A stretch of 36,312 bases of DNA from a virus (Duplodnaviria > Heunggongvirae > Uroviricota > Caudoviricetes). The position numbers were made by a program, and so were the translations under genes. Every line of letters begins with the position of its first letter. Within the stretch, counting starts at the first letter, position 1. A model generated the notes under the pieces. That model saw only the letters and a list, made by a program, of their open reading frames with translations. It did not search any database and was not told where the DNA came from. Positions 1 to 13,265 of this stretch are shown here, in pieces. Location: the IMG/VR virus record IMGVR_UViG_2579778938_000006; one strand, 5' to 3'.

Positions 1-756
1 TTACGGGGTAATGCCAACCGCTGCCGCCACTTTGTCGCCACTAGTGCTTTGTTTTTCGAATTCATCTAAGGCTCTTTCAACATCAGAAAGATACTCTTTG
101 AATGAGTTCAAGATCATGCTTAACGAGCCCCCCATAAATAGGACCTGTTTTCCATCTTTTTTAAAAAAATCAGGATATTTTTCTATAAGTTCAATAATGC
201 TTTTAATATTTTGCCCGTCGTTTTCTAAGTATTTTGCATCATTATGCGCACAACTGTTTCTTAATTTTGTTATTTTTTTGATATTCGAATAGTGGGATGT
301 TGACTTCATCCCTATCATTTTTTTGATAAATAGATGGCTCCTCTCAAATCCACTTCCTTTGAGATCTGAAACATTTATAGGAGAATGATGTCTATTAGCA
401 AAGTTGTTACAGAATTTTTCTATTTCGTGTTCAAAAATTCCGAATATAGTTAAGAATACTGACCTGCGGATAATACTTGGGTAGTATTCTAAAAACATTT
501 CATCGAGATCTAGCGATGAGCTGGTGAGTCCCATGTAATGATCAATTGACTGGTATACACCATCTTCCGGAGATATTTCAATTATATATTCTTCAGGTCC
601 TTTGTCTTTATATTCTGCTATGCCCTTAGCGATTGATGATTCGCTATGAGTGATTAACGTCTCGATAATATCAAATGTTAAAGAGAAGTCGAATATTGGT
701 AATTGAAACAAAAACTTAACCATGCTTGAGCCTTTAAGAATCTGATTTAGTAACAT
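1..756 (-). CDS. Hypothetical cargo protein (~240-251 aa) with RNxxAH (HEPN-like) motif; candidate Abi/defence or toxin protein
   Basis: AT-rich ORF downstream of int on the same strand; alternative start at 723 (MVKF...) has an AAAGG Shine-Dalgarno and avoids the overlap with int; contains LRNSCAHN; last codons cross the attL core. Confidence 0.55.
   Translation of the reverse strand: MLLNQILKGSSMVKFLFQLPIFDFSLTFDIIETLITHSESSIAKGIAEYKDKGPEEYIIEISPEDGVYQSIDHYMGLTSSSLDLDEMFLEYYPSIIRRSVFLTIFGIFEHEIEKFCNNFANRHHSPINVSDLKGSGFERSHLFIKKMIGMKSTSHYSNIKKITKLRNSCAHNDAKYLENDGQNIKSIIELIEKYPDFFKKDGKQVLFMGGSLSMILNSFKEYLSDVERALDEFEKQSTSGDKVAAAVGITP
19..40. repeat. attL: attL core candidate (cgctgccgccactttgtcgcca)
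   Basis: Matches 33458..33479 at 21 of 22 positions; lies just beyond the 3' end of int as in P2-like prophages. Confidence 0.6.
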
Positions 757-1765
757 CCAAAGTTGCTAGTGGATTGAAACGAAGAGCTGTCTCTAAGTGA
801 TCAGGTGATAGATGAGCATAACGCATAGTCATTTTTATGTCGTGATGTCCGAGGATTTTTTGCAAAGCAAGGATGTTTCCACCCGACATCATGAAATGCG
901 CCGCAAACGTATGGCGCAGAACGTGTGTCAGTTGACCGCGAGGGAGTACGATAGACGTTTTTTCCATCACAGATAAAAATTGAAAATAGCAGTCTGTGAA
1001 GAAATTGAACCCATCAAGCGCCATGATCTCTTCGTAAAGGTCTTTACTGATAGGGATGCTTCTGTTTTTCTTCCCTTTCGTTCTTACAAAGGTAATTCGG
1101 TATTTGGTTACCTGTGAGCGGGTAAGATTTACGGCTTCACGCCAGCGTGCGCCTGTGCTTAAGCATATCTTAACTACCAGTGCCAGTATTGGGTCCTGAC
1201 GTTTGCAATCAGCCAGCAATTCAACAATCTGCTCATGAGTAAGCCATGCCATCTCCTTTTCTGCGATGGTGAATTTTCGCATGTTCTCCAGTGGGTTCGG
1301 ATACGACCATTCGCCAAGGCGGGATAGTTCGCTAAAAACACTACTTAGATAGCTTTGCTCCAGGTTAATGGTGACCGGGCTTGCTCCTTTCTTCCATTTC
1401 TCGCTGAAGTAGATCTCGCCTGTCAGGCGTTTATCTCGATAGTGGGCAAACATTTTAGAGGTGAGATCAGTTGCAAGGGGATTGCCCAGAGCGTCAACCA
1501 TCAGCAGCAATTTGTCATAGACATGCTGCCCAGCAGTCAGTGATTTACCATGTAGTTTGAACCATAGCTCAACCACGTCTTTCAGTGTTCGACGATCCAC
1601 TGATTCACCTAGCCAGGGCTTTGCTTCGGTTTCTTCCATCGTGTGACGCTCAAAAGCCAGTGCTTCGCCTTTGGTGGCGAATTGTTTACGCACACGACGC
1701 CCACTACGTCCGGCGGGGTAACATTCGCAAAGCCATTTTCCTGTGGTGAGTTTTCGTACAGCCAT
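734..1765 (-). CDS. int: Tyrosine integrase (P2/186 Int family)
   Basis: Translation has conserved tyrosine-recombinase blocks (LSTGARWREA, HVLRHTFAAHFM, ILGHHDIKMTMRYAHL); likely start MAVRKLTTGKW at 1765 rather than the upstream ATG at 1921. Confidence 0.9.
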   Translation of the reverse strand: MAVRKLTTGKWLCECYPAGRSGRRVRKQFATKGEALAFERHTMEETEAKPWLGESVDRRTLKDVVELWFKLHGKSLTAGQHVYDKLLLMVDALGNPLATDLTSKMFAHYRDKRLTGEIYFSEKWKKGASPVTINLEQSYLSSVFSELSRLGEWSYPNPLENMRKFTIAEKEMAWLTHEQIVELLADCKRQDPILALVVKICLSTGARWREAVNLTRSQVTKYRITFVRTKGKKNRSIPISKDLYEEIMALDGFNFFTDCYFQFLSVMEKTSIVLPRGQLTHVLRHTFAAHFMMSGGNILALQKILGHHDIKMTMRYAHLSPDHLETALRFNPLATLDVTKSDS

Positions 1766-1953
1766 AAAAAATGCCCTCCAATAGAGAGCATTTTTACTGT
1801 ATGCATAACCAGTGTCAATGTATGAAATCCTACGACCATACATCTCACTGAAGCCATAATTAAGTTGGCTATTCTTTTTGCTATGTGAGCATGTAATTTT
1901 TGCGTTTAACCTGCGGCTCATTTTTATTTTAGGCGCAGATATAAAAGCAAAAG

Positions 1954-2160: not shown

Positions 2161-2736
2161 CTATTTAACATACTTGACTGTTAAACTTATAATTTTACCA
2201 ATTATTTCAATGTCTTCTATCTTGCATTCGAAGGCTCTGTTTCCACCCTCGACGAAGATTCTTCCACCGGGTAAACGAGTAATGTCACGGATCGTTATTT
2301 CGCCATCAATACTTATTACCCATTTACCATCACGTATATCATCAAATTCCTTATCACAAATAAATTCAGAATTATTATCTGTGATTACAAAAAGATTCTT
2401 GAATACCGACGGTAGAAATTCCCTATCGAAAATATAAAAACCGTCTTCACACAAGGCCCCATCAGATAATACATATTTAGCAACTTCCATAGTATTTGTA
2501 TTACCTGAAGTTTGCTTTGAACCATGCCCGGTTGTGAGCCAATTAAGCGAGGTGCCCGTTTCAAGGGCGCACTGGATTACCCATTCTGCGGGGAATGAGT
2601 CACGCATGTAGCGTGTGGCGAGTGTACTTTTAGAGATTCCTAAATGATCGCACAACGCCTGTCGAGTCTTGAATCCATAAGCTTCTACCATGCGCTCTAT
2701 AGCGCCTCGTCCGCCTTTCTCCAAATTCATGGTCAC
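2161..2736 (-). CDS. cI: CI-type immunity repressor (186 CI-like, 191 aa, N-terminal HTH)
   Basis: Position immediately upstream of int on the same strand and divergent from apl/cII; HTH-like segment LCDHLGISKSTLATRYMR; size matches 186 CI rather than the ~100 aa P2 C. Confidence 0.8.
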   Translation of the reverse strand: MTMNLEKGGRGAIERMVEAYGFKTRQALCDHLGISKSTLATRYMRDSFPAEWVIQCALETGTSLNWLTTGHGSKQTSGNTNTMEVAKYVLSDGALCEDGFYIFDREFLPSVFKNLFVITDNNSEFICDKEFDDIRDGKWVISIDGEITIRDITRLPGGRIFVEGGNRAFECKIEDIEIIGKIISLTVKYVK

Positions 2737-2855: not shown

Positions 2856-3077
2856 ATGAGACCTAACATTTCAATCACTCTTACCACGCCTCATGTGACT
2901 ATTGAACGCTATAGCGAGCTGACAGGGCTGTCCATCGATACTATCAATGACATGTTGGCTGATGGACGCCTTATCCGTCACCGTTTGCGCAAAGATAAAA
3001 AACGCGAAAAAGTGATGATCAACATAGCAGCCATGACCGTTGATGCGCTTTCAGAATGCAATCTAAACCTTAATTAG
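2856..3077 (+). CDS. apl: Apl/Cox-like excisionase-transcriptional regulator (73 aa)
   Basis: First gene of the rightward early operon facing cI; small basic protein; positional equivalent of 186 Apl / P2 Cox. Confidence 0.6.
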
Positions 3078-3103: not shown

Positions 3104-3619
3104 TTGACCATGTTTGATTACCAAGTTTCCAAACATCCACATTTTGATGAAGCCTGTCGTGCATTCGCACTGCGCCACAATCTGGTGCAACTGGCAGAAC
3201 GTGCAGGTATGAATGTGCAGATTCTGCGGAACAAACTGAACCCAGCTCAACCTCATTTATTAACCGCACCAGAAATCTGGCTGCTTACCGATCTGACTGA
3301 AGATTCAACGCTGGTAGATGGTTTTCTGGCACAGATTCATTGTCTGCCATGTGTACCGATTAATGAGGTGGCAAAAGAGAAACTGCCACATTACGTCATG
3401 AGTGCAACCGCAGAGATCGGGCGTGTTGCTGCAGGTGCGGTGTCTGGCGATGTAAAAACCTGTGCCGGTCGTCGTGATGCTATCAGCAGCATTAACTCTG
3501 TAACACGACTGATGGCGCTGGCGGCTGTTTCATTGCAGGCCCGTTTACAGGCTAATCCTGCGATGGCGAGTGCAGTTGATACCGTGACTGGCCTCGGTGC
3601 TTCATTTGGTTTGCTGTGA
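3104..3619 (+). CDS. cII: CII-like lysogeny-establishment activator (171 aa)
   Basis: Second gene of the early operon; size and position as 186 CII. Confidence 0.6.
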
Positions 3620-4660: not shown

Positions 4661-5514
4661 GCACCATCCTGAAATGGGCGGGAAATAAAATCGCCATTAT
4701 GTCCGAACTGAAAAAACACCTTCCTGCTGGCCCGCGACTGGTTGAACCTTTCGCGGGTTCCTGTGCTGTGATGATGGAGACGGATTACCCCAGCTATCTT
4801 GTTGCGGATATTAATCCTGATTTAATCAACCTCTATAAAAAGGTTGCTGCTGATTGCGAGGCGTTTATATCTCGTGCCAGAGCTTTATTTGAGGAAGCAA
4901 ACAGGGAGGTGGCTTATTACAACATAAGGCAGGAGTTTAATTACTCCACTGAAATTACTGATTTCATGAAAGCGGTATATTTCCTGTATCTCAATCGTCA
5001 TGGTTACCGTGGATTATGTCGCTATAACAAGAGCGGGCATTTCAACATTCCGAACGGTAATTATAAAAATCCGTATTTCCCTGAAAAAGAAATTCGCGCA
5101 TTTGCAGAGAAAGCCCAGCGTGCAACGTTTATCTGCGCAAGCTTTGATGAAACGCTGGCGATGCTGCAGGTGGGGGATGTGGTGTATTGCGATCCGCCGT
5201 ATGACGGTACGTTTTCCGGCTATCACACTGATGGCTTCACTGAAGATGACCAGTATCACCTGGCATCCGTTCTTGAACATCGATCATCTGAAGGTCATCC
5301 GGTCATTGTTTCTAACAGTGACACATCCCTGATTCGTTCGCTGTATCGCAATTTCACTCACCACTACATCAAGGCAAAACGCAGCATCGGCGTGTCGGCT
5401 GGCGAGAGTAAATCTGCAACAGAAATCATTGCTGTTTCCGGGGCGCGCTGCTGGGTGGGATTTGATCCTTCGCGTGGCGTGGATAGTTCTGCCATGTACG
5501 GAGTGCGTGCATGA
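4657..5514 (+). CDS. dam: DNA adenine (N6) methyltransferase, Dam family
   Basis: Motif I FAGSCAV and catalytic DPPY; N-terminal WAGNK; ATGA overlap with the upstream gene. Confidence 0.85.
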
Positions 5515-7925
5515 GCCATGATGATATGAACAACTGCAGCGGCTTTAACGAGGTCGCCGCAGCATTCTCATGGAACAGCCCGAAAAAGGCTATTAACCCT
5601 TATCTGGACCCGGCGGAAGTTGCGCCGGTTTCTGCGCTTTCAAACCTGATCACTCTGTACGCTGCCGATAACGAGCAGGAACAACTGCGCCGCGAGGCAC
5701 TGAGTGATCAGGTCTGGGAGCGTTATTTCTTTAATGAATCCCGTGATCCTGTCCAACGCGAAATGGAGCAGGATAAGCTCATTAGCCGGGCAAAGCTGGC
5801 GCATGAGCAGCAGCGTTTTAACCCGGACATGGTCATTCTGGCAGACGTTAACGCCCAGCCTTCCCATATCAGCAAGCCGCTGATGCAACGTATTGAATAC
5901 TTCAGCAGTCTGGGCAGGCCAAAGGCTTATTCCCGCTATTTGCGTGAGACGATTAAGCCATGTCTGGAACGACTGGAGCATGTACGCGACAGTCAGCTAT
6001 CCACTTCTTTTCGCTTTATGGCAAGCCATGAAGGGCTGGACGGCCTGCTGATCCTGCCTGAAATGAGTCAGGAGCAGGTGAAACGCTTGTCTACCCTTGT
6101 CGCTGCGCATATGAGCATGTGCCTTGATGCAGCTTGTGGCGATTTGTATGTCACCGATGACGTTAAGCCAGAAGAAATCCGCAAGACATGGGAAAAGGTG
6201 GCAGCGGAAACCCTGCGTCTGGATGTCATCCCGCCTGCGTTTGATCAACTCCGCCGGAAAAGAAACCGCCGTAAACCCGTGCCCTATGAACTCATTCCGG
6301 GTTCGCTGGCGCGTATGTTGTGCGCCGACTGGTGGTATCGGAAATTATGGAAGATGCGTTGCGAATGGCGGGAAGAGCAGTTGCGCGCTGTCTGCCTGGT
6401 CAGCAAAAAAGCATCTCCTTATGTCAGCTATGAAGCCGTGATGCATAAACGTGAGCAGCGCCGTAAGTCGCTGGAGTTTTTCCGTTCTCATGAACTGGTG
6501 AACGAAGACGGCGACACGCTGGACATGGAGGATGTGGTAAACGCCAGCAGCAGCAACCCTGCGCATCGCCGCAATGAGATGATGGCCTGTGTTAAAGGTC
6601 TGGAGCTTATCGCGGAAATGCGCGGTGACTGCGCCGTTTTCTACACCATCACCTGTCCGTCACGTTTCCATTCCACGCTAAATAACGGCAGGCCCAACCC
6701 GACCTGGACAAATGCGACGGTAAGACAAAGCAGTGATTATCTGGTCGGCATGTTTGCTGCATTTCGTAAGGCGATGCACAAAGCCGGATTGCGCTGGTAT
6801 GGCGTGCGGGTGGCTGAGCCGCATCATGACGGTACAGTTCACTGGCACCTGTTGTGTTTTATGCGCAAAAAAGATCGCCGCGCCATTACTGCTTTGTTGC
6901 GTAAGTTTGCCATTCGTGAAGACCGCGAGGAGCTGGGTAATAACACAGGACCACGCTTTAAGTCTGAGCTGATAAACCCGCGCAAAGGTACGCCAACAAG
7001 CTACATCGCGAAATACATCAGTAAGAACATTGACGGGCGTGGTCTGGCTGGCGAGATCAGCAAGGAAACGGGTAAATCCCTGCGTGATAACGCTGAATAC
7101 GTTAATGCCTGGGCGTCTCTGCATCGTGTTCAGCAATTCCGCTTCTTTGGTATTCCAGGGCGTCAGGCTTACCGTGAACTGCGGTTGTTGGCTGGTCAGG
7201 CGGCAAGGCAGCAGGGTGACAAAAAAGCAGGTGCGCCGGTACTGGATAACCCGCGCCTTGATGCCATCCTGGCTGCTGCTGATGCTGGCTGTTTTGCCAC
7301 CTACATTATGAGGCAGGGCGGCGTGCTGGTTCCTCGCAAATATCACTTGATCAGAACCGCTTATGAAATCAATGAAGAGCCGACCGCCTATGGCGATCAC
7401 GGTATTCGTATTTATGGCATCTGGTCACCCATTGCAGAGGGCAAGATCTGCACTCATGCAGTGAAGTGGAAAATGGTTCGTAAAGCCGTTGACGTTCAGG
7501 AGGCGGCAGCCGACCAGGGCGCTTGCGCCCCTTGGACTCGTGGCAATAACTGTCCCCTTGCTGAAAATTTGTACCAACAAGGGAAAGACAAATCAGCTGA
7601 TGGGGATACCAGAACGGATATCACCCGTATGGATGACAAGGAGTTGCACGATTACCTGCACAGTATGAACAAAAAAGAACGCCGGGAACTGGCTGCAAGG
7701 TTACGCCTGGTGAAACCGAAACGGCGTAGAGACTACAAACAGCGAATTACAGACCATCAACGACAGCAGCTCGTCTATGAACTGAAGTCCAGAGGATTTG
7801 ATGGCAGCGAGAAAGAGGTCGATTTACTCCTTCGCGGCGGCAGTATTCCGTCAGGAGCAGGCCTGCGTATCTTCTATCGGAACCAGCGTTTGCAGGAAGA
7901 TGATAAGTGGCGGGATCTGTATTAA
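5511..7925 (+). CDS. A: Replication initiation protein A (rolling-circle HUH endonuclease, P2 gpA family)
   Basis: 804-aa protein with HUH-like VHWHLL and tyrosine block [10 protein letters not shown]; position after the early regulators. Confidence 0.85.
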
Positions 7926-8017
7926 TTACGCGGGTTAACAATTCGTGCTCTTAATAATACCAGGCATATCAGGCTGATGAACGTAAAAAAACGTTTTACA
8001 TCAGTAAGATTATTATA

Positions 8018-8037
8018 TACTGTAAATATAAACAGTG
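8018..8037 (+). promoter_or_regulatory. LexA (SOS) box TACTGTAAATATAAACAGTG overlapping a candidate promoter (-35 TTTACA 7995..8000)
   Basis: CTGT-N8-ACAG with AT-rich spacer, about 40 bp upstream of the tum-like start. Confidence 0.75.
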
Positions 8038-8078
8038 GTTATGTGTACAGTATTGCTTGTGGTGTCATAGGAGGAAAA

Positions 8079-8267
8079 ATGCAGGACTATTTTTTGGAGT
8101 CTTTGAAGCTCCAGCGCATTGATTTTTTTCTTAAGCTTGTAGCGGCTAGTGAGTGTAGTGATGAAGAGAAGGGGCTGGCTCTGCAGTGGGTTTCTGAATT
8201 GACTGATGAACTCATGGCAAAAATCAGAAGCCACGAATACAACCGCTCAATGGATGTCATCAGCTGA
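8079..8267 (+). CDS. tum: Tum-like SOS-inducible small protein (candidate antirepressor N-terminal module, 62 aa)
   Basis: AGGAGGA SD; directly downstream of the LexA box; position of 186 tum. Confidence 0.45.
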   Translation: MQDYFLESLKLQRIDFFLKLVAASECSDEEKGLALQWVSELTDELMAKIRSHEYNRSMDVIS

Positions 8268-8277
8268 GGTGACTTTT

Positions 8278-8511
8278 ATGCGCATTGAAATAATGATCGA
8301 TAAAGAGCAGAAAATTAGCCAGTCTACCCTGGACGCCCTTGAATCCGAGCTTTACCGCAATCTGCGCCCCCTGTATCCCAAAACGGTAATTCGTATCCGC
8401 AAAGGTAGCTCTAACGGTGTGGAACTGACCGGACTGCAACTGGACGAAGAAAGAAAACAAGTGATGAAAATTATGCAGAAGGTGTGGGAAGACGACAGCT
8501 GGCTGCATTAA
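8278..8511 (+). CDS. DinI-family protein (77 aa)
   Basis: Translation MRIEIMIDK...LDALESEL...IRIRKG...ERKQVMKIMQKVWEDDSW aligns by eye with E. coli DinI (MRIEVTIAK...IDALAGEL...KQRISEILQETWESADDW). Confidence 0.75.
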   Translation: MRIEIMIDKEQKISQSTLDALESELYRNLRPLYPKTVIRIRKGSSNGVELTGLQLDEERKQVMKIMQKVWEDDSWLH

Positions 8512-9016
8512 GAAACGTTGCTGGCGTCTGAACTTGCTTCTGGCGTCAGCAAGGTTGAATAACGAGCTGTGCGAGGCGTTAGCCATCTGATCAAAAGACA
8601 TCAAATATCATATTGTATATCGTGGTCAAACGCTGGAAACAATCATTCCCGGTCAGAGGGGCTTCTTTCAATGTCTAAAAGAGTGAGATAGAGGATACAG
8701 GATGGGAAGAGCTTATGATGATTGTTCTTGGATTGACTTGGAATATTTGATGTCCATTATCTAATGGACTTGGTCTTGATAGTTATCACGAAAGAGGAAG
8801 CCAACGTCATGTATTTGAAGAGTATCTCTTACCTTTTGATTAATTATTGTCCAAGTTTTTCAAAAGCTTCTTATCTGGCGGTCGATACATGATTTACTGT
8901 TGGATATGGTATTTAAAATTAATCTTTACACTGTGGTATATGCAGAATAGGATATTATCAATACAATCAAACTGTTTTCATACGGTTGTTAATATTGCAA
9001 TGTTATAGGTAATGTC

Positions 9017-10135
9017 ATGTATCTTTTCAAGTATTACCGTCCGGACTTCTTCTTCGAGAAAGCTATTCGTTATAATGAATTATATTTTTCCGCTCCTGCG
9101 CAATTGAATGATCCTAATGATCTCAATATAGATTATCGTTTTGATAATAAATTGAAATTATGGGATATTTTATTGCGTTCTCCTTGCGATAAATCCTATA
9201 AAAATTTGAGTCACATATTAGATTTGAGTAATTTGAATATACATAAGGGATTGAATCGTATTTTTAGAGGAAAAAAAATAAAAAGTAGCATTGAGTCATT
9301 AGATAGCCTGTTTGACTCACACGTTGATGAGATACGTAAGATCATAAATGATGGTTTACTACCTATCAATGTGATTAATTCCGCTATTTATGGGAATATT
9401 CCTGAACCACGCCAATTTTTGGTCTCACTTTGCGAGAACAGTATCAAAGAAAGGTTGTATAGGAAAATAGTTCCTGCAGTATTCAGTGTGTCATTTTCAG
9501 CTAATGCGTTAGATCGTATGATGTGGGCGCATTATGCTGCAGGCTTTAGTGGTTGTGTTGTGATTTATGAAACGCAGGATTTTAATATTAATGGCGTACC
9601 ACATCCTGGAATGAAGTTAAGAGAAAATTTATTTTCATCAGATAAAATTAATTTTCCAGTTAAGCCAATAAAATATAGTAATCAAGCTAAAGAGGTTTCA
9701 CTTCTAGACCCAAGCGCAAATGTTGCAGAGTTATTTTTAACTAAAAATAGATTTTGGAGATATGAAGCTGAATATCGAATGTTTATTCCAGAGGCAAATG
9801 CAGGAATAGGGAGTGAGCGGCATGTTCAAAGACACGTAAATCGAAATATTGGACATGTTTTTCATCATGATGCTAATGTTGTTAAAGGGATCATTTTTGG
9901 TCCTAGAATGTGTGAAATGAAAAAAGAAAGCATATGGAATTGTATCAAGTCAAATATGGAGAATTCAAATTCAACAATATGTTATTTTTTTGACTCTGAG
10001 TTATCAGCATCAGGAAAGATTACTATTTCAAAAGGGCAACGAGCGGAAAAAATGAAAAATTTCCCTTTGTTCAGGAACAAGTTAAGTCAGACGGAAATGG
10101 CTAAAGTTTTGAAGGAAATTGGCATTACGAACTAA
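9017..10135 (+). CDS. Hypothetical 372-aa cargo protein, DUF2971-like N-terminus; candidate anti-phage gene
   Basis: Very AT-rich; N-terminus LFKYYRPDFFFEKAIRYNELYFSAPAQLNDPNDL resembles the DUF2971 signature as I recall it; own terminator downstream; in the P2 old/tin hotspot position. Confidence 0.6.
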   Translation: MYLFKYYRPDFFFEKAIRYNELYFSAPAQLNDPNDLNIDYRFDNKLKLWDILLRSPCDKSYKNLSHILDLSNLNIHKGLNRIFRGKKIKSSIESLDSLFDSHVDEIRKIINDGLLPINVINSAIYGNIPEPRQFLVSLCENSIKERLYRKIVPAVFSVSFSANALDRMMWAHYAAGFSGCVVIYETQDFNINGVPHPGMKLRENLFSSDKINFPVKPIKYSNQAKEVSLLDPSANVAELFLTKNRFWRYEAEYRMFIPEANAGIGSERHVQRHVNRNIGHVFHHDANVVKGIIFGPRMCEMKKESIWNCIKSNMENSNSTICYFFDSELSASGKITISKGQRAEKMKNFPLFRNKLSQTEMAKVLKEIGITN

Positions 10136-10201
10136 CCTAACAACAGTGCATGCCTATGCTGCCTGAATTTGCATGACCGTTTGAGGATCGTTTTTGCTAA
10201 G

Positions 10202-10225
10202 GCCCGCCAGAACTGGCGGGCTTTT
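10202..10225 (+). terminator. Rho-independent terminator (GCCCGCC-agaact-GGCGGGC-TTTT)
   Basis: 7-bp GC stem, 6-nt loop, T-run; 67 bp downstream of the 372-aa gene stop. Confidence 0.7.
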
Positions 10226-10270
10226 GCGTGGATCAGGCACCTGCATGAAAACCACTACACAAAGCGGGCA

Positions 10271-10283
10271 GGCGTGGCGGGGA
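10271..10283. other. cos: cos-like motif GGCGTGGCGGGGA (possible cohesive-end site)
   Basis: Matches the first 13 nt of the P2/186 19-nt cohesive end as I remember it (GGCG[A/T]GGCGGGGAAAGCA); diverges after that. Confidence 0.3.
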
Positions 10284-10409
10284 TACGAGCGCGCGCTAGA
10301 AACGTTTACTGATATTCTTGTAGTACATTGCATTTTTCTTTTTTTATGTCATATCATTAGCCATTTGAATAGGACATTATTATCAATTTGTTGTCTCTGA
10401 GGATAAGTT

Positions 10410-12191
10410 ATGAATTTTGATGCAACACCACTAAATATAAAAAACATTCTATCTGTAAAACAAAGATATGTTATTCCTCGTAATCAACGTGAGTTTAGTT
10501 GGGAAAAGCTTCAGCTTGAAGAGTTATGGCAAGATATTGTCAGAAACATAAGGTTGAATGAAGATGGACAGAACTTGGAGTGTTCAGAATATTTTATAGG
10601 GACTATTGTTCTTTCTGGAGCAGATAGTGATGATGTATTAGAAGTGGTTGATGGACAACAACGATTTTCAGTTATTACTATATTGCTTTCATTAATATCG
10701 CGTAAATTGCGTTCCTTAGGGCAAGATTCATTAGCGGATGATATATTTAAAACATATATCGTTACTGTGAGTCCTACATTTAGCAGAAGCCAATTAGCTT
10801 CAAATGGTGAGACATTTATTGAAAAATTAGCAAAAAATAGCGATAGAACATATTTTAAGTTAAAATATCAAGATCGCGAAGAGCATCAAGTTGATGAATC
10901 TTGTGAAGAGGATGTACGTATAAGTTATGCAGGAATTTTTCTTTCTAGAAAACTAGGGAGGAAATCACTCTGTTCTGCATTGTTGCGAGATGGTGCAAAA
11001 CATTATAATAACCAAGATTATATATTTTGTTTGACTGCTGTATATAGAATGATTACCAATTATTTGAAGTTGGTAAAAATATCTGTAGGTAAGGAGGATG
11101 ATGCTTATGATATTTTTGAAGTGTTGAATGCTCGAGGGATAAACTTAAGTTCAATTGATTTGATAAAGAATAAAGTATTCCAAACTTGCACTCAAACATA
11201 TCCGGTAGATATTGCAAAAACAAAATGGGATTATATCGTTACTCAAATTGAGTCTAGGGATAGTAATAGCACTATTGCTGATTATATTAGAACGTGGTGG
11301 CTTTCTAAGTATAATTATATTGGAGAAGATCAACTTTATCGTGCTTTTAAACGTGAGATTCAAGATGAGAATACTTTATTGTCATCAGCATCATTTCTGA
11401 ACGAATTATATGATGATGTTGAATTATACTGTAAAATAATAGCGCCAAATACAGATGACTGGCCTCAACCTGATCAGCGTGAAATTTACAACTCGTTAAA
11501 AGCATTCGAGATTTTTAATGTGAGTATTCCTCGACCATTTGTACTCTCATTACTTAGAAAACGTAAAGAGAAACCGAGAGCCCTTACACAATCAATGCTG
11601 ATAGAATGTTTGAAGTCCTTAGAGTCATTTCACTTTAAGTTTAATGCAGTATGTCGTCTAAGACCATCTGGAATCGATGCAAAATATTCTGTATTAGCAG
11701 TAAGAATGAATAAGGCATTAAATAAAAGAGATGTTGAGGGTGTTATTAATGACGCGTTAGATTATTTTACACAGAAAGGGCCTTCAGAAAATATATTCAA
11801 ACAAGCATTTTCAAAGAATATTGTTTATACAAATAAAAAGTCTGGGCAAAGGAAGTTGATTGTTTATATTTTTGACAAATTGGAACGTATCAGACGAGGG
11901 ACACGAGAGTTAAAAATGGATATAGTTTCTTTGGAACACATATCATCTCAAAGCAAAACTAACGAGTCAGTCGTGGGTATGATTGGTAATTTACTACCAC
12001 TCTGTTTTTCACTTAATGAAGATTGCAAAAATTATGAGTTGCACAAAAAAATAGAATCTTATAAAAAATCTGATTTAAAATTAGTTACAGAGTTTGTTAG
12101 TGAGTCAGAAGCAAGAGAACATAAATGGGATGATTCATTAATAAAAGAAAGAACAGATAGCTTGGCGTTAGAAACGTTTGCTAAAATATAA
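10410..12191 (+). CDS. DUF262 (ParB-like/GmrS) + DUF1524 (His-Me finger/GmrD) fusion nuclease, 593 aa; GmrSD/BrxU-like type IV restriction candidate
   Basis: Motifs VIPRNQREFSWE, VDGQQRFSVI, FEVLNARGINLSSIDLIKNK (DUF262) and SLEHISSQ...GNLLPL...NEDCKN (DUF1524-like); AT-rich; GAGGA SD. Confidence 0.8.
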   Translation: MNFDATPLNIKNILSVKQRYVIPRNQREFSWEKLQLEELWQDIVRNIRLNEDGQNLECSEYFIGTIVLSGADSDDVLEVVDGQQRFSVITILLSLISRKLRSLGQDSLADDIFKTYIVTVSPTFSRSQLASNGETFIEKLAKNSDRTYFKLKYQDREEHQVDESCEEDVRISYAGIFLSRKLGRKSLCSALLRDGAKHYNNQDYIFCLTAVYRMITNYLKLVKISVGKEDDAYDIFEVLNARGINLSSIDLIKNKVFQTCTQTYPVDIAKTKWDYIVTQIESRDSNSTIADYIRTWWLSKYNYIGEDQLYRAFKREIQDENTLLSSASFLNELYDDVELYCKIIAPNTDDWPQPDQREIYNSLKAFEIFNVSIPRPFVLSLLRKRKEKPRALTQSMLIECLKSLESFHFKFNAVCRLRPSGIDAKYSVLAVRMNKALNKRDVEGVINDALDYFTQKGPSENIFKQAFSKNIVYTNKKSGQRKLIVYIFDKLERIRRGTRELKMDIVSLEHISSQSKTNESVVGMIGNLLPLCFSLNEDCKNYELHKKIESYKKSDLKLVTEFVSESEAREHKWDDSLIKERTDSLALETFAKI

Positions 12192-12227: not shown

Positions 12228-13265
12228 TCACATACACTCCACAGAGTATTCACTGAATGAGATGATGTTTTTTTTAGCCCATTCATTAAGTTGCAGAATA
12301 TGTTTTTGAATTGGTAGTAACTCATTCATAACAAATACTTTCGCGGCCTTTTCCACATCCCCAAACCCCCCAACATTATTAGGCATAATCCCCATCATTT
12401 GCGGTGGCACACGATGCGCCGCCATCATGTCATCCCGGCTCACGTTCTTGATGTTTAGAAACTCATCCTTCGCCGCCACTTCTGACAACGGGATAATCTG
12501 AAGTCCGTCCTTTTTCCCGTTAGGCGAGTACATAAATAGGTTGCGGAAGTTACCTGGTCCTTTGGCGCTTTTCATCGCATTGCGGAGGTTGTTCACGTCC
12601 TCCTGGTTCTGCGCGGCATCGGTCATGTACATGATGAAGCCAGCATGACTGCCGTTTATGTAATACTTTCGACGGAACAGCGTGGCGGACTCATTGAGCA
12701 GGGCGGACGGAATAGCAGAAAGATAGCCGGGCAGGCCATAGATCTCCTGATTTATGTCCGGTTCCATCAGATGGAAAATGCTGCCTTTCGTGAACTGATA
12801 CGGCTGCGTAGTCATGCCGTATTGCACAAACCAGTAGGTATCCAGGTCTAATCCGCGTCGGGTGTATTTTGCCAGAGCAGGCTCAAGGGCGATAACTTCA
12901 CCGAACCGGTTTGTGCGTTTCTCCAGGTAGGCGTTACCAAATACCAGATAGTCCTGCACAAAACGCGAAAAAGCCTGCTGGCTGAGCAGCGGATGAGGGA
13001 TATAGGTACTGGTCAGAATGTTGCATTTCACCGCAATTGGTGAACTGTGGTGCACGGCAGCGCGGAAGGTGCGCGCCAGTCCGTCAAAGCTGACGGGCGG
13101 CTCATACCAGCGATCTGTCTGTACGCATTCCACATAGTCCAGCAGTTCTCGGCGGTCCAGAACAGGAACGGGATCGCCGAAGCTGAATACTTCGGCTGTA
13201 GTCTGGCTTTTAAGCTGGATCTGTTTCGTCGCCGCAGCGCGGTTTTTCTTACTCTTTCCCATCAA
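12228..13265 (-). CDS. Q: Portal protein (P2 gpQ)
   Basis: 345-aa ORF, P2 synteny (Q-P leftward, O-N-M-L rightward); overlaps the P stop. Confidence 0.85.
   Translation of the reverse strand: MMGKSKKNRAAATKQIQLKSQTTAEVFSFGDPVPVLDRRELLDYVECVQTDRWYEPPVSFDGLARTFRAAVHHSSPIAVKCNILTSTYIPHPLLSQQAFSRFVQDYLVFGNAYLEKRTNRFGEVIALEPALAKYTRRGLDLDTYWFVQYGMTTQPYQFTKGSIFHLMEPDINQEIYGLPGYLSAIPSALLNESATLFRRKYYINGSHAGFIMYMTDAAQNQEDVNNLRNAMKSAKGPGNFRNLFMYSPNGKKDGLQIIPLSEVAAKDEFLNIKNVSRDDMMAAHRVPPQMMGIMPNNVGGFGDVEKAAKVFVMNELLPIQKHILQLNEWAKKNIISFSEYSVECM

Follow-up and report, generated by a model that had tools for sequence, protein, structure and literature searches.

This analysis indicates with high confidence that two short genes of the window (the whole 36,312-nucleotide stretch of viral DNA that was analysed) constitute the SOS-induction operon of a Fels-2/186-like prophage, in a two-gene form. 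The first gene (ORF1, 8079-8267, forward strand) encodes a 62-aa protein of the TumA type, a predicted antirepressor modelled as a two-helix hairpin. The second one (ORF2, 8278-8511, forward strand) encodes a 77-aa DinI-like protein (PF06183) of the TumB type. Both lie downstream of a LexA box.

The preliminary description of this DNA predicted that the prophage is SOS-inducible, and this is supported by the work done on DuoHS from E. coli HS, which encodes identical Tum and DinI-like proteins and a CI repressor 99% identical to that of the window. The in-frame deletion of the 62-aa tum of DuoHS abolishes mitomycin C-induced lysis and virion foci, and both are separately abolished by lexA(Ind-) (PMC12055606, Nat Microbiol 2025). 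The deleted gene, ECHS_RS04495, encodes a protein 100% identical to ORF1, and the primers used at the deletion junction match the window on both sides of ORF1. The evidence for SOS induction is that obtained with DuoHS, the window prophage being known here from its sequence.

Prophage context and CI repressor

The window corresponds to a P2/186-like, more precisely Fels-2-like, prophage (Peduoviridae). It includes an integrase gene (734-1921, reverse strand), the cI gene encoding a 186-type immunity repressor presumed to be the target of Tum (2161-2730, reverse strand; Phage_CI_repr and Phage_CI_C domains), an Apl/Cox-like gene (2856-3077), the CII gene (3104-3619), the replication gene A (gpA, 5511-7925; PF05840, E = 1.6e-127) and a portal gene (12228-13265, reverse strand), beyond which structural genes were recognised from the list of ORFs. 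The ORF1/ORF2 module is located directly after gene A, a synteny shared with 186, PSP3, Fels-2, DuoHS and metagenomic relatives.

The CI of the window is 33% identical to that of 186 over 175 aa. Its C-terminus gave a faint match to Peptidase_S24 (E = 0.008) that lies below the Pfam cut-off. This CI is a 186-type repressor, predicted from its domains to be unable to cleave itself. In 186, CI is inactivated by Tum and not by cleavage.

Putative SOS promoter and LexA box

The sequence TACTGTAAATATAAACAGTG (8018-8037, forward strand) is a LexA (SOS) box that differs by three mismatches from the 20-mer consensus TACTGTATATATATACAGTA. It is the sole site of the 36-kb window showing three mismatches or fewer to this consensus, none of 100 shuffled sequences yielded any such site, and the single occurrence of CTGT-N8-ACAG in the window is also located there. 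A chance occurrence of the box was rejected. The arrangement initially proposed, i.e., a LexA box overlapping a promoter with a -35 element TTTACA, is thereby confirmed. The box is invariant in DuoHS and Fels-2 and was found 5′ of every ORF1-family member examined, including members that are only 32-45% identical and carried by other prophage backbones.

The -35 element TTTACA (7995-8000, forward strand), which by analogy with 186 would belong to the equivalent of its p95 promoter, is identical in DuoHS and Fels-2, and 186 p95 has a -35 of the same TT(T/C)ACA form. The putative -10 element TACTGT (8018-8023, forward strand) follows at a spacing of 17 nt and makes up the left arm of the box; if TATACT (8016-8021) were the -10 instead, the spacer would be 15 nt. 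Whichever hexamer is used, LexA bound at 8018-8037 would occlude the -10. The annotated p95 promoter of 186 (TTCACA-N18-TACTGT) has the same design: there too, the LexA box has the -10 as its left arm. The SOS promoter at 7995-8023 was missed by a generic sigma-70 scan, because TACTGT fits the -10 consensus at only three of six positions; we infer this promoter from its likeness to 186 p95 and not from the scan.

The distance between the box and the gene differs among relatives. In the other family members examined, the LexA box is located 15-21 nt 5′ of the start codon, whereas the main box of the window is 41 nt away from it. A second, degenerate LexA-like site, CAGTGGTTATGTGTACAGTA (8033-8052, forward strand), overlaps the right arm of the main box. 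It shows six mismatches to the consensus, with an intact right arm (ACAGTA) and a decayed left arm, and it is to this segment that the LexA boxes of 186 and PSP3 align (MAFFT). Located 26 nt from the ATG, it is closer than the main box to the position occupied by the box in 186, PSP3 and others, which suggests that the functional box moved upstream in the Fels-2 group. The second site is probably a relic.

ORF1 and the antirepressor half of Tum

The two short ORFs reported in the preliminary description are real and each is preceded by a strong Shine-Dalgarno sequence, but both start positions had been placed one nucleotide too high. The ATG of ORF1 (8079) is preceded at 4 nt by AGGAGG (8069-8074, forward strand). 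ORF1 did not match any family in Pfam or PADLOC, and in PHROGs it belongs to phrog_698, annotated as "unknown function". Closely related proteins are nevertheless encoded by many phages: identity reaches 96.8% with STM2728 of Fels-2 and 83-98% with proteins from SopE-phi, RE-2010 and P2-like phages of Klebsiella, Escherichia and Yersinia.

The proposal that the first ORF corresponds to a part of Tum was upheld, the protein being a homologue of the N-terminal half. Since direct BLASTP of ORF1 against 186 Tum returned no match, this homology rests on profiles and on intermediate sequences. Profile-profile comparison (hhalign) of the ORF1 family with the family of the 186 Tum N-terminus gave a probability of 95.9% and an E value of 5.7e-9, in a register that places residues 3-44 of ORF1 against residues 3-44 of Tum, with about 19% identity. 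Furthermore, BLASTP aligned one ORF1-family protein, P0296, directly with 186 Tum (42% identity across 36 residues; E = 1e-8). An exhaustive HMMER search delineated 67 representative clusters (50% identity) in the ORF1 family; apart from start-codon extensions, all the representatives are 50-75 aa in length. Its divergent members display the motif LQRIELVARLVA..C...DKELAL.WIAEL, which resembles residues 10-42 of Tum. On the basis of these sequence comparisons, the homology between ORF1 and the antirepressor half of 186 Tum is remote but real.

The AlphaFold2 model of ORF1 (pLDDT 87.7) consists of two helices (residues 2-23 and 28-61) forming a hairpin. A Foldseek search of the PDB with this model recovered generic helical hairpins only (best E = 1.6) and no informative neighbour.

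In many database entries, ORF1 is extended to ATG 7977, which lies 5′ of both the LexA box and the SOS promoter, and the protein has 96 aa (or 84-106 aa), but RefSeq and the DuoHS deletion use the 62-aa form with its AGGAGG Shine-Dalgarno sequence. In view of this 62-aa form, the longer calls and the name "levan regulatory protein" look like annotation artefacts. Many records describe the product as a "hypothetical protein" or give it the spurious levan name; this annotation should read tum/tumA.

ORF2 and the DinI family

The second ORF had been described as clearly DinI-family, and this assignment was borne out. ORF2, whose Shine-Dalgarno sequence GAGGTGA (8266-8272, forward strand) overlaps the stop codon of ORF1, matches the DinI family PF06183 over the complete profile (positions 1-63 of 63; E = 6.6e-23; 81.3 bits for a cut-off of 24.2), and it also matches the solved structure of E. 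coli DinI, 1GHH (E = 2.7e-6). The statement that 186 Tum has a DinI-like C-terminal part likewise proved right: ORF2 aligns without gap with Tum residues 71-145, with about 41-42% identity. The protein is 100% identical to the DinI-like proteins of DuoHS (ECHS_RS04500) and Fels-2, and 78% identical to TumB of PSP3.

DinI-family proteins act on RecA. As a member of this family, ORF2 probably tunes the SOS signal through RecA filaments; it is predicted to be an accessory and not the antirepressor. Among four distant loci of the ORF1 family, a dinI gene is present in only one, whereas the small gene always follows gpA and a LexA box. Since three of these four loci lack a dinI gene, the constant element is the small helical protein behind the LexA box. 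The DinI-like gene looks like an optional companion, with repeated gain, loss or fusion in the course of evolution.

A conserved two-gene layout

The preliminary description suggested that the two ORFs could be a split or two-gene version of Tum. The two-gene form did stand, and it is a conserved one: tumA and tumB are separate in PSP3, and tum is split in Fels-2. What did not stand is a recent frameshift or a pseudogene. The window does not hold the single polypeptide of 186, its two parts being encoded in separate frames: ORF1 ends with a TGA at 8265-8267 and is followed by a gap of 10 nt and a frame change before ORF2. No fusion of an ORF1-type protein with a DinI-like protein (about 140 aa) was found among 484 word-indexed homologues nor among the 67 representatives at 50% identity.

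The different frames of these two ORFs, only 10 nt apart, together with the existence in 186 of one 146-aa protein spanning both parts, could be taken to mean that a 186-like tum was broken by a recent frameshift or stop and that the module is a non-functional pseudogene. This explanation, which retains almost no probability, is effectively refuted. Indeed, the identity of ORF1 to the N-terminus of Tum is low (about 19%), each ORF has its own Shine-Dalgarno sequence, the 62 + 77 aa layout is conserved across genera, at 83-100% protein identity in phages of E. coli, Salmonella, Klebsiella and Yersinia, and deletion of the identical gene prevents the induction of DuoHS, all of which argues against a recent frameshift. 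Of 5426 complete E. coli genomes, 1125 (about a fifth) carry the module. Moreover, close homologues of the N-terminal part of the 186-type Tum also exist as stand-alone "Tum protein" genes of 63-67 aa.

A scan for terminator-like structures detected a weak stem-loop (8256-8273, forward strand) that covers the stop codon of ORF1 and the Shine-Dalgarno sequence of ORF2. With -12.2 kcal/mol and a z score of -1.3, it is not significantly stable and was rejected as a terminator. It may couple the translation of ORF1 and ORF2.

Such a coupling between adjacent ORFs, as well as the covalent link between the two parts in 186, would fit a two-subunit Tum in which neither protein alone inactivates CI; besides, the DuoHS experiment removed ORF1 only and does not imply that ORF2 is dispensable. 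We nevertheless regard a two-subunit Tum as quite unlikely. Distant ORF1-family genes are found alone behind their LexA box, in prophage regions devoid of dinI, and the upstream gene of PSP3 is by itself reported to have antirepressor activity (Lemire et al. 2011, PMC3121763). In addition, 186 also produces the DinI-like part separately, and this product is annotated only as "modulates SOS induction".

Proposed induction mechanism

In a lysogen, host LexA would occupy 8018-8037, overlapping the -10 element, and the operon would be silent. After DNA damage, active RecA would lead to LexA self-cleavage and the promoter would fire. The 62-aa helical hairpin encoded by ORF1 would then bind the non-cleavable 186-type CI and free the lytic promoter, allowing lytic growth, and the 77-aa DinI-family protein, equivalent to the C-terminal part of Tum, would act as an accessory on RecA filaments. 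We infer the binding of ORF1 to the window CI by analogy with 186. As cited in later papers (Shearwin 1998), 186 Tum sequesters CI and blocks its binding to operators; direct binding of Tum to CI has been demonstrated for 186 only.

The phages whose Tum is at least 90% identical to ORF1 encode CIs that are only 41-56% identical overall to that of the window, and this divergence is unevenly distributed: identity is 69-78% in the N-terminal HTH domain and 30-41% in the C-terminal domain. In 186, which has a different type of Tum, the N-terminal domain of CI is only 41% identical to that of the window. This comparison, which covers six sequences (the window CI and phage loci L008-L012) and is only suggestive, leads to a possible but rather doubtful interpretation: Fels-2-type Tum might recognise the N-terminal DNA-binding domain of CI and not its divergent C-terminal oligomerisation domain. 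If true, one near-invariant 62-aa Tum could cross-induce co-resident Fels-2-like prophages that have differing CIs. One of the loci compared, L009 of Klebsiella phage Kp4872-2 (OK490434.1, 2536-3839), contains the CI N-terminal HTH twice in tandem, ahead of the C-terminal domain; the frame of this CI homologue is a stop-free stretch of 318 codons, which could encode a repressor with a duplicated domain or correspond to two adjacent genes read through.

Downstream hairpin and defence cargo

Just 3′ of ORF2 lies a strong GC-rich hairpin devoid of a U tract (8518-8552, forward strand; -23.5 kcal/mol, z score of -4.2; none of 200 shuffled sequences was as stable), which marks the boundary with a variable cargo. 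This hairpin is shared with phage vB_EcoM-813R9 and missing from DuoHS and Fels-2, whose similarity to the window stops at the stop codon of ORF2. It might act as a non-canonical terminator or stabilise the RNA, or it might delimit the exchange of cargo.

The cargo region that follows the hairpin separates the DinI-like gene from the portal gene; it is about 3.7 kb long, with a GC content of 33-40%, and of 33-37% over 9017-12191. The preliminary description suggested that the cargo may also be SOS-inducible; between ORF2 and the cargo genes lie the hairpin and a low-GC stretch of unrelated DNA, about 500 nt long. One of these genes (9017-10135) encodes a DUF2971 protein that matches the PADLOC candidate PDC-S31 (E = 2.2e-23), and the other (10410-12191) a type IV restriction enzyme of the GmrSD type, 593 aa long, with GmrSD_N and GmrSD_C domains (PADLOC HEC-06, E = 7.4e-75). 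DuoHS, Fels-2 and phage 813R9 carry other genes in place of this cargo (9017-12191).

The presence of these PDC-S31 and GmrSD defence genes downstream, on the same strand as the operon, the action of DinI-family proteins on RecA and the faint sub-threshold S24 match of CI raise another explanation: the operon would mainly act on the host as an SOS modulator, or would drive the cargo, and induction would occur by another route such as CI autocleavage. We consider this explanation very improbable. The S24 match lies under the Pfam cut-off, CI is of the 186 type (Phage_CI_C) that Tum inactivates in 186, and the deletion of tum abolishes the induction of DuoHS; on these grounds, autocleavage of CI was rejected as the induction route. 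Furthermore, the cargo varies among phages that carry the same module, the similarity with DuoHS and Fels-2 ending precisely with ORF2, and the strong hairpin is located directly 3′ of this gene. With an SOS-induction operon based on Tum, DNA-damaging agents should mobilise the prophage along with its anti-phage cargo, by way of LexA and the antirepressor and not by cleavage of the repressor.

Comparison with known systems

The module described here is already known, and this analysis adds no new biology to the publications on 186, PSP3, Fels-2 and DuoHS. The closest relative is DuoHS, in which ORF1 and ORF2 have identical counterparts, the CI is almost the same and the LexA box and the -35 are identical and located at the same place after gpA. 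It differs by unrelated cargo 3′ of the DinI-like gene and by a few leader substitutions, located 3′ of the box and 5′ of the Shine-Dalgarno sequence. Fels-2 (STM2728/STM2726.1) shows the same LexA box, the same synteny, a nearly identical ORF1 and an identical ORF2. In SopE-phi, RE-2010 and the P2-like phages of Klebsiella, ORF1 is 90-98% identical; these phages and Fels-2 differ from the window by their more distant CIs.

In distant relatives, the metagenomic P2-like prophages L013, L015 and L017, dinI is missing. Their LexA-controlled tum-like gene directly precedes an ogr/delta-type gene and then the portal gene, or a putAbiC-family gene is intercalated, and their ogr is not placed as in P2 and 186.

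In PSP3, Tum is likewise encoded by two genes, which follow gene A and a LexA box that is nearly perfect. Its annotation describes tumA (60 aa) as "similar to 5' end 186 tum; UV induction of prophage" and tumB as DinI-like. However, whereas TumB is close to ORF2, TumA shows hardly any similarity to ORF1 (hhalign probability of 9.5%, E = 0.0034), and tumA and tumB share one frame with a gap of 3 nt, unlike the window ORFs, which are separated by 10 nt and a change of frame. Lemire et al. 2011 (PMC3121763) state that tum is split in Fels-2 and PSP3 and that the antirepressor activity lies in the upstream gene of PSP3; this assignment is a personal communication that is cited second-hand. A literature search on TumA, TumB and PSP3 found no relevant papers.

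With E. coli DinI (1GHH), ORF2 aligns end to end, including the acidic C-terminal W-E-x-x-D-x-W motif, but the two proteins share only 29% identity and ORF2 is encoded by a prophage and co-transcribed with an antirepressor gene.

Phage 186 shares with the window a LexA box covering the -10 of p95, located after gene A, a Tum whose N-terminal part resembles ORF1 and whose DinI-like C-terminal part resembles ORF2, and a 186-type CI. It differs in that its Tum (146 aa) fuses both parts in one frame with additional internal starts, the DinI-like half being also expressed separately from an internal GTG. Its box is 18 nt from the start codon, compared to 41 nt in the window, and its module is followed by orf97, where the window carries defence cargo.
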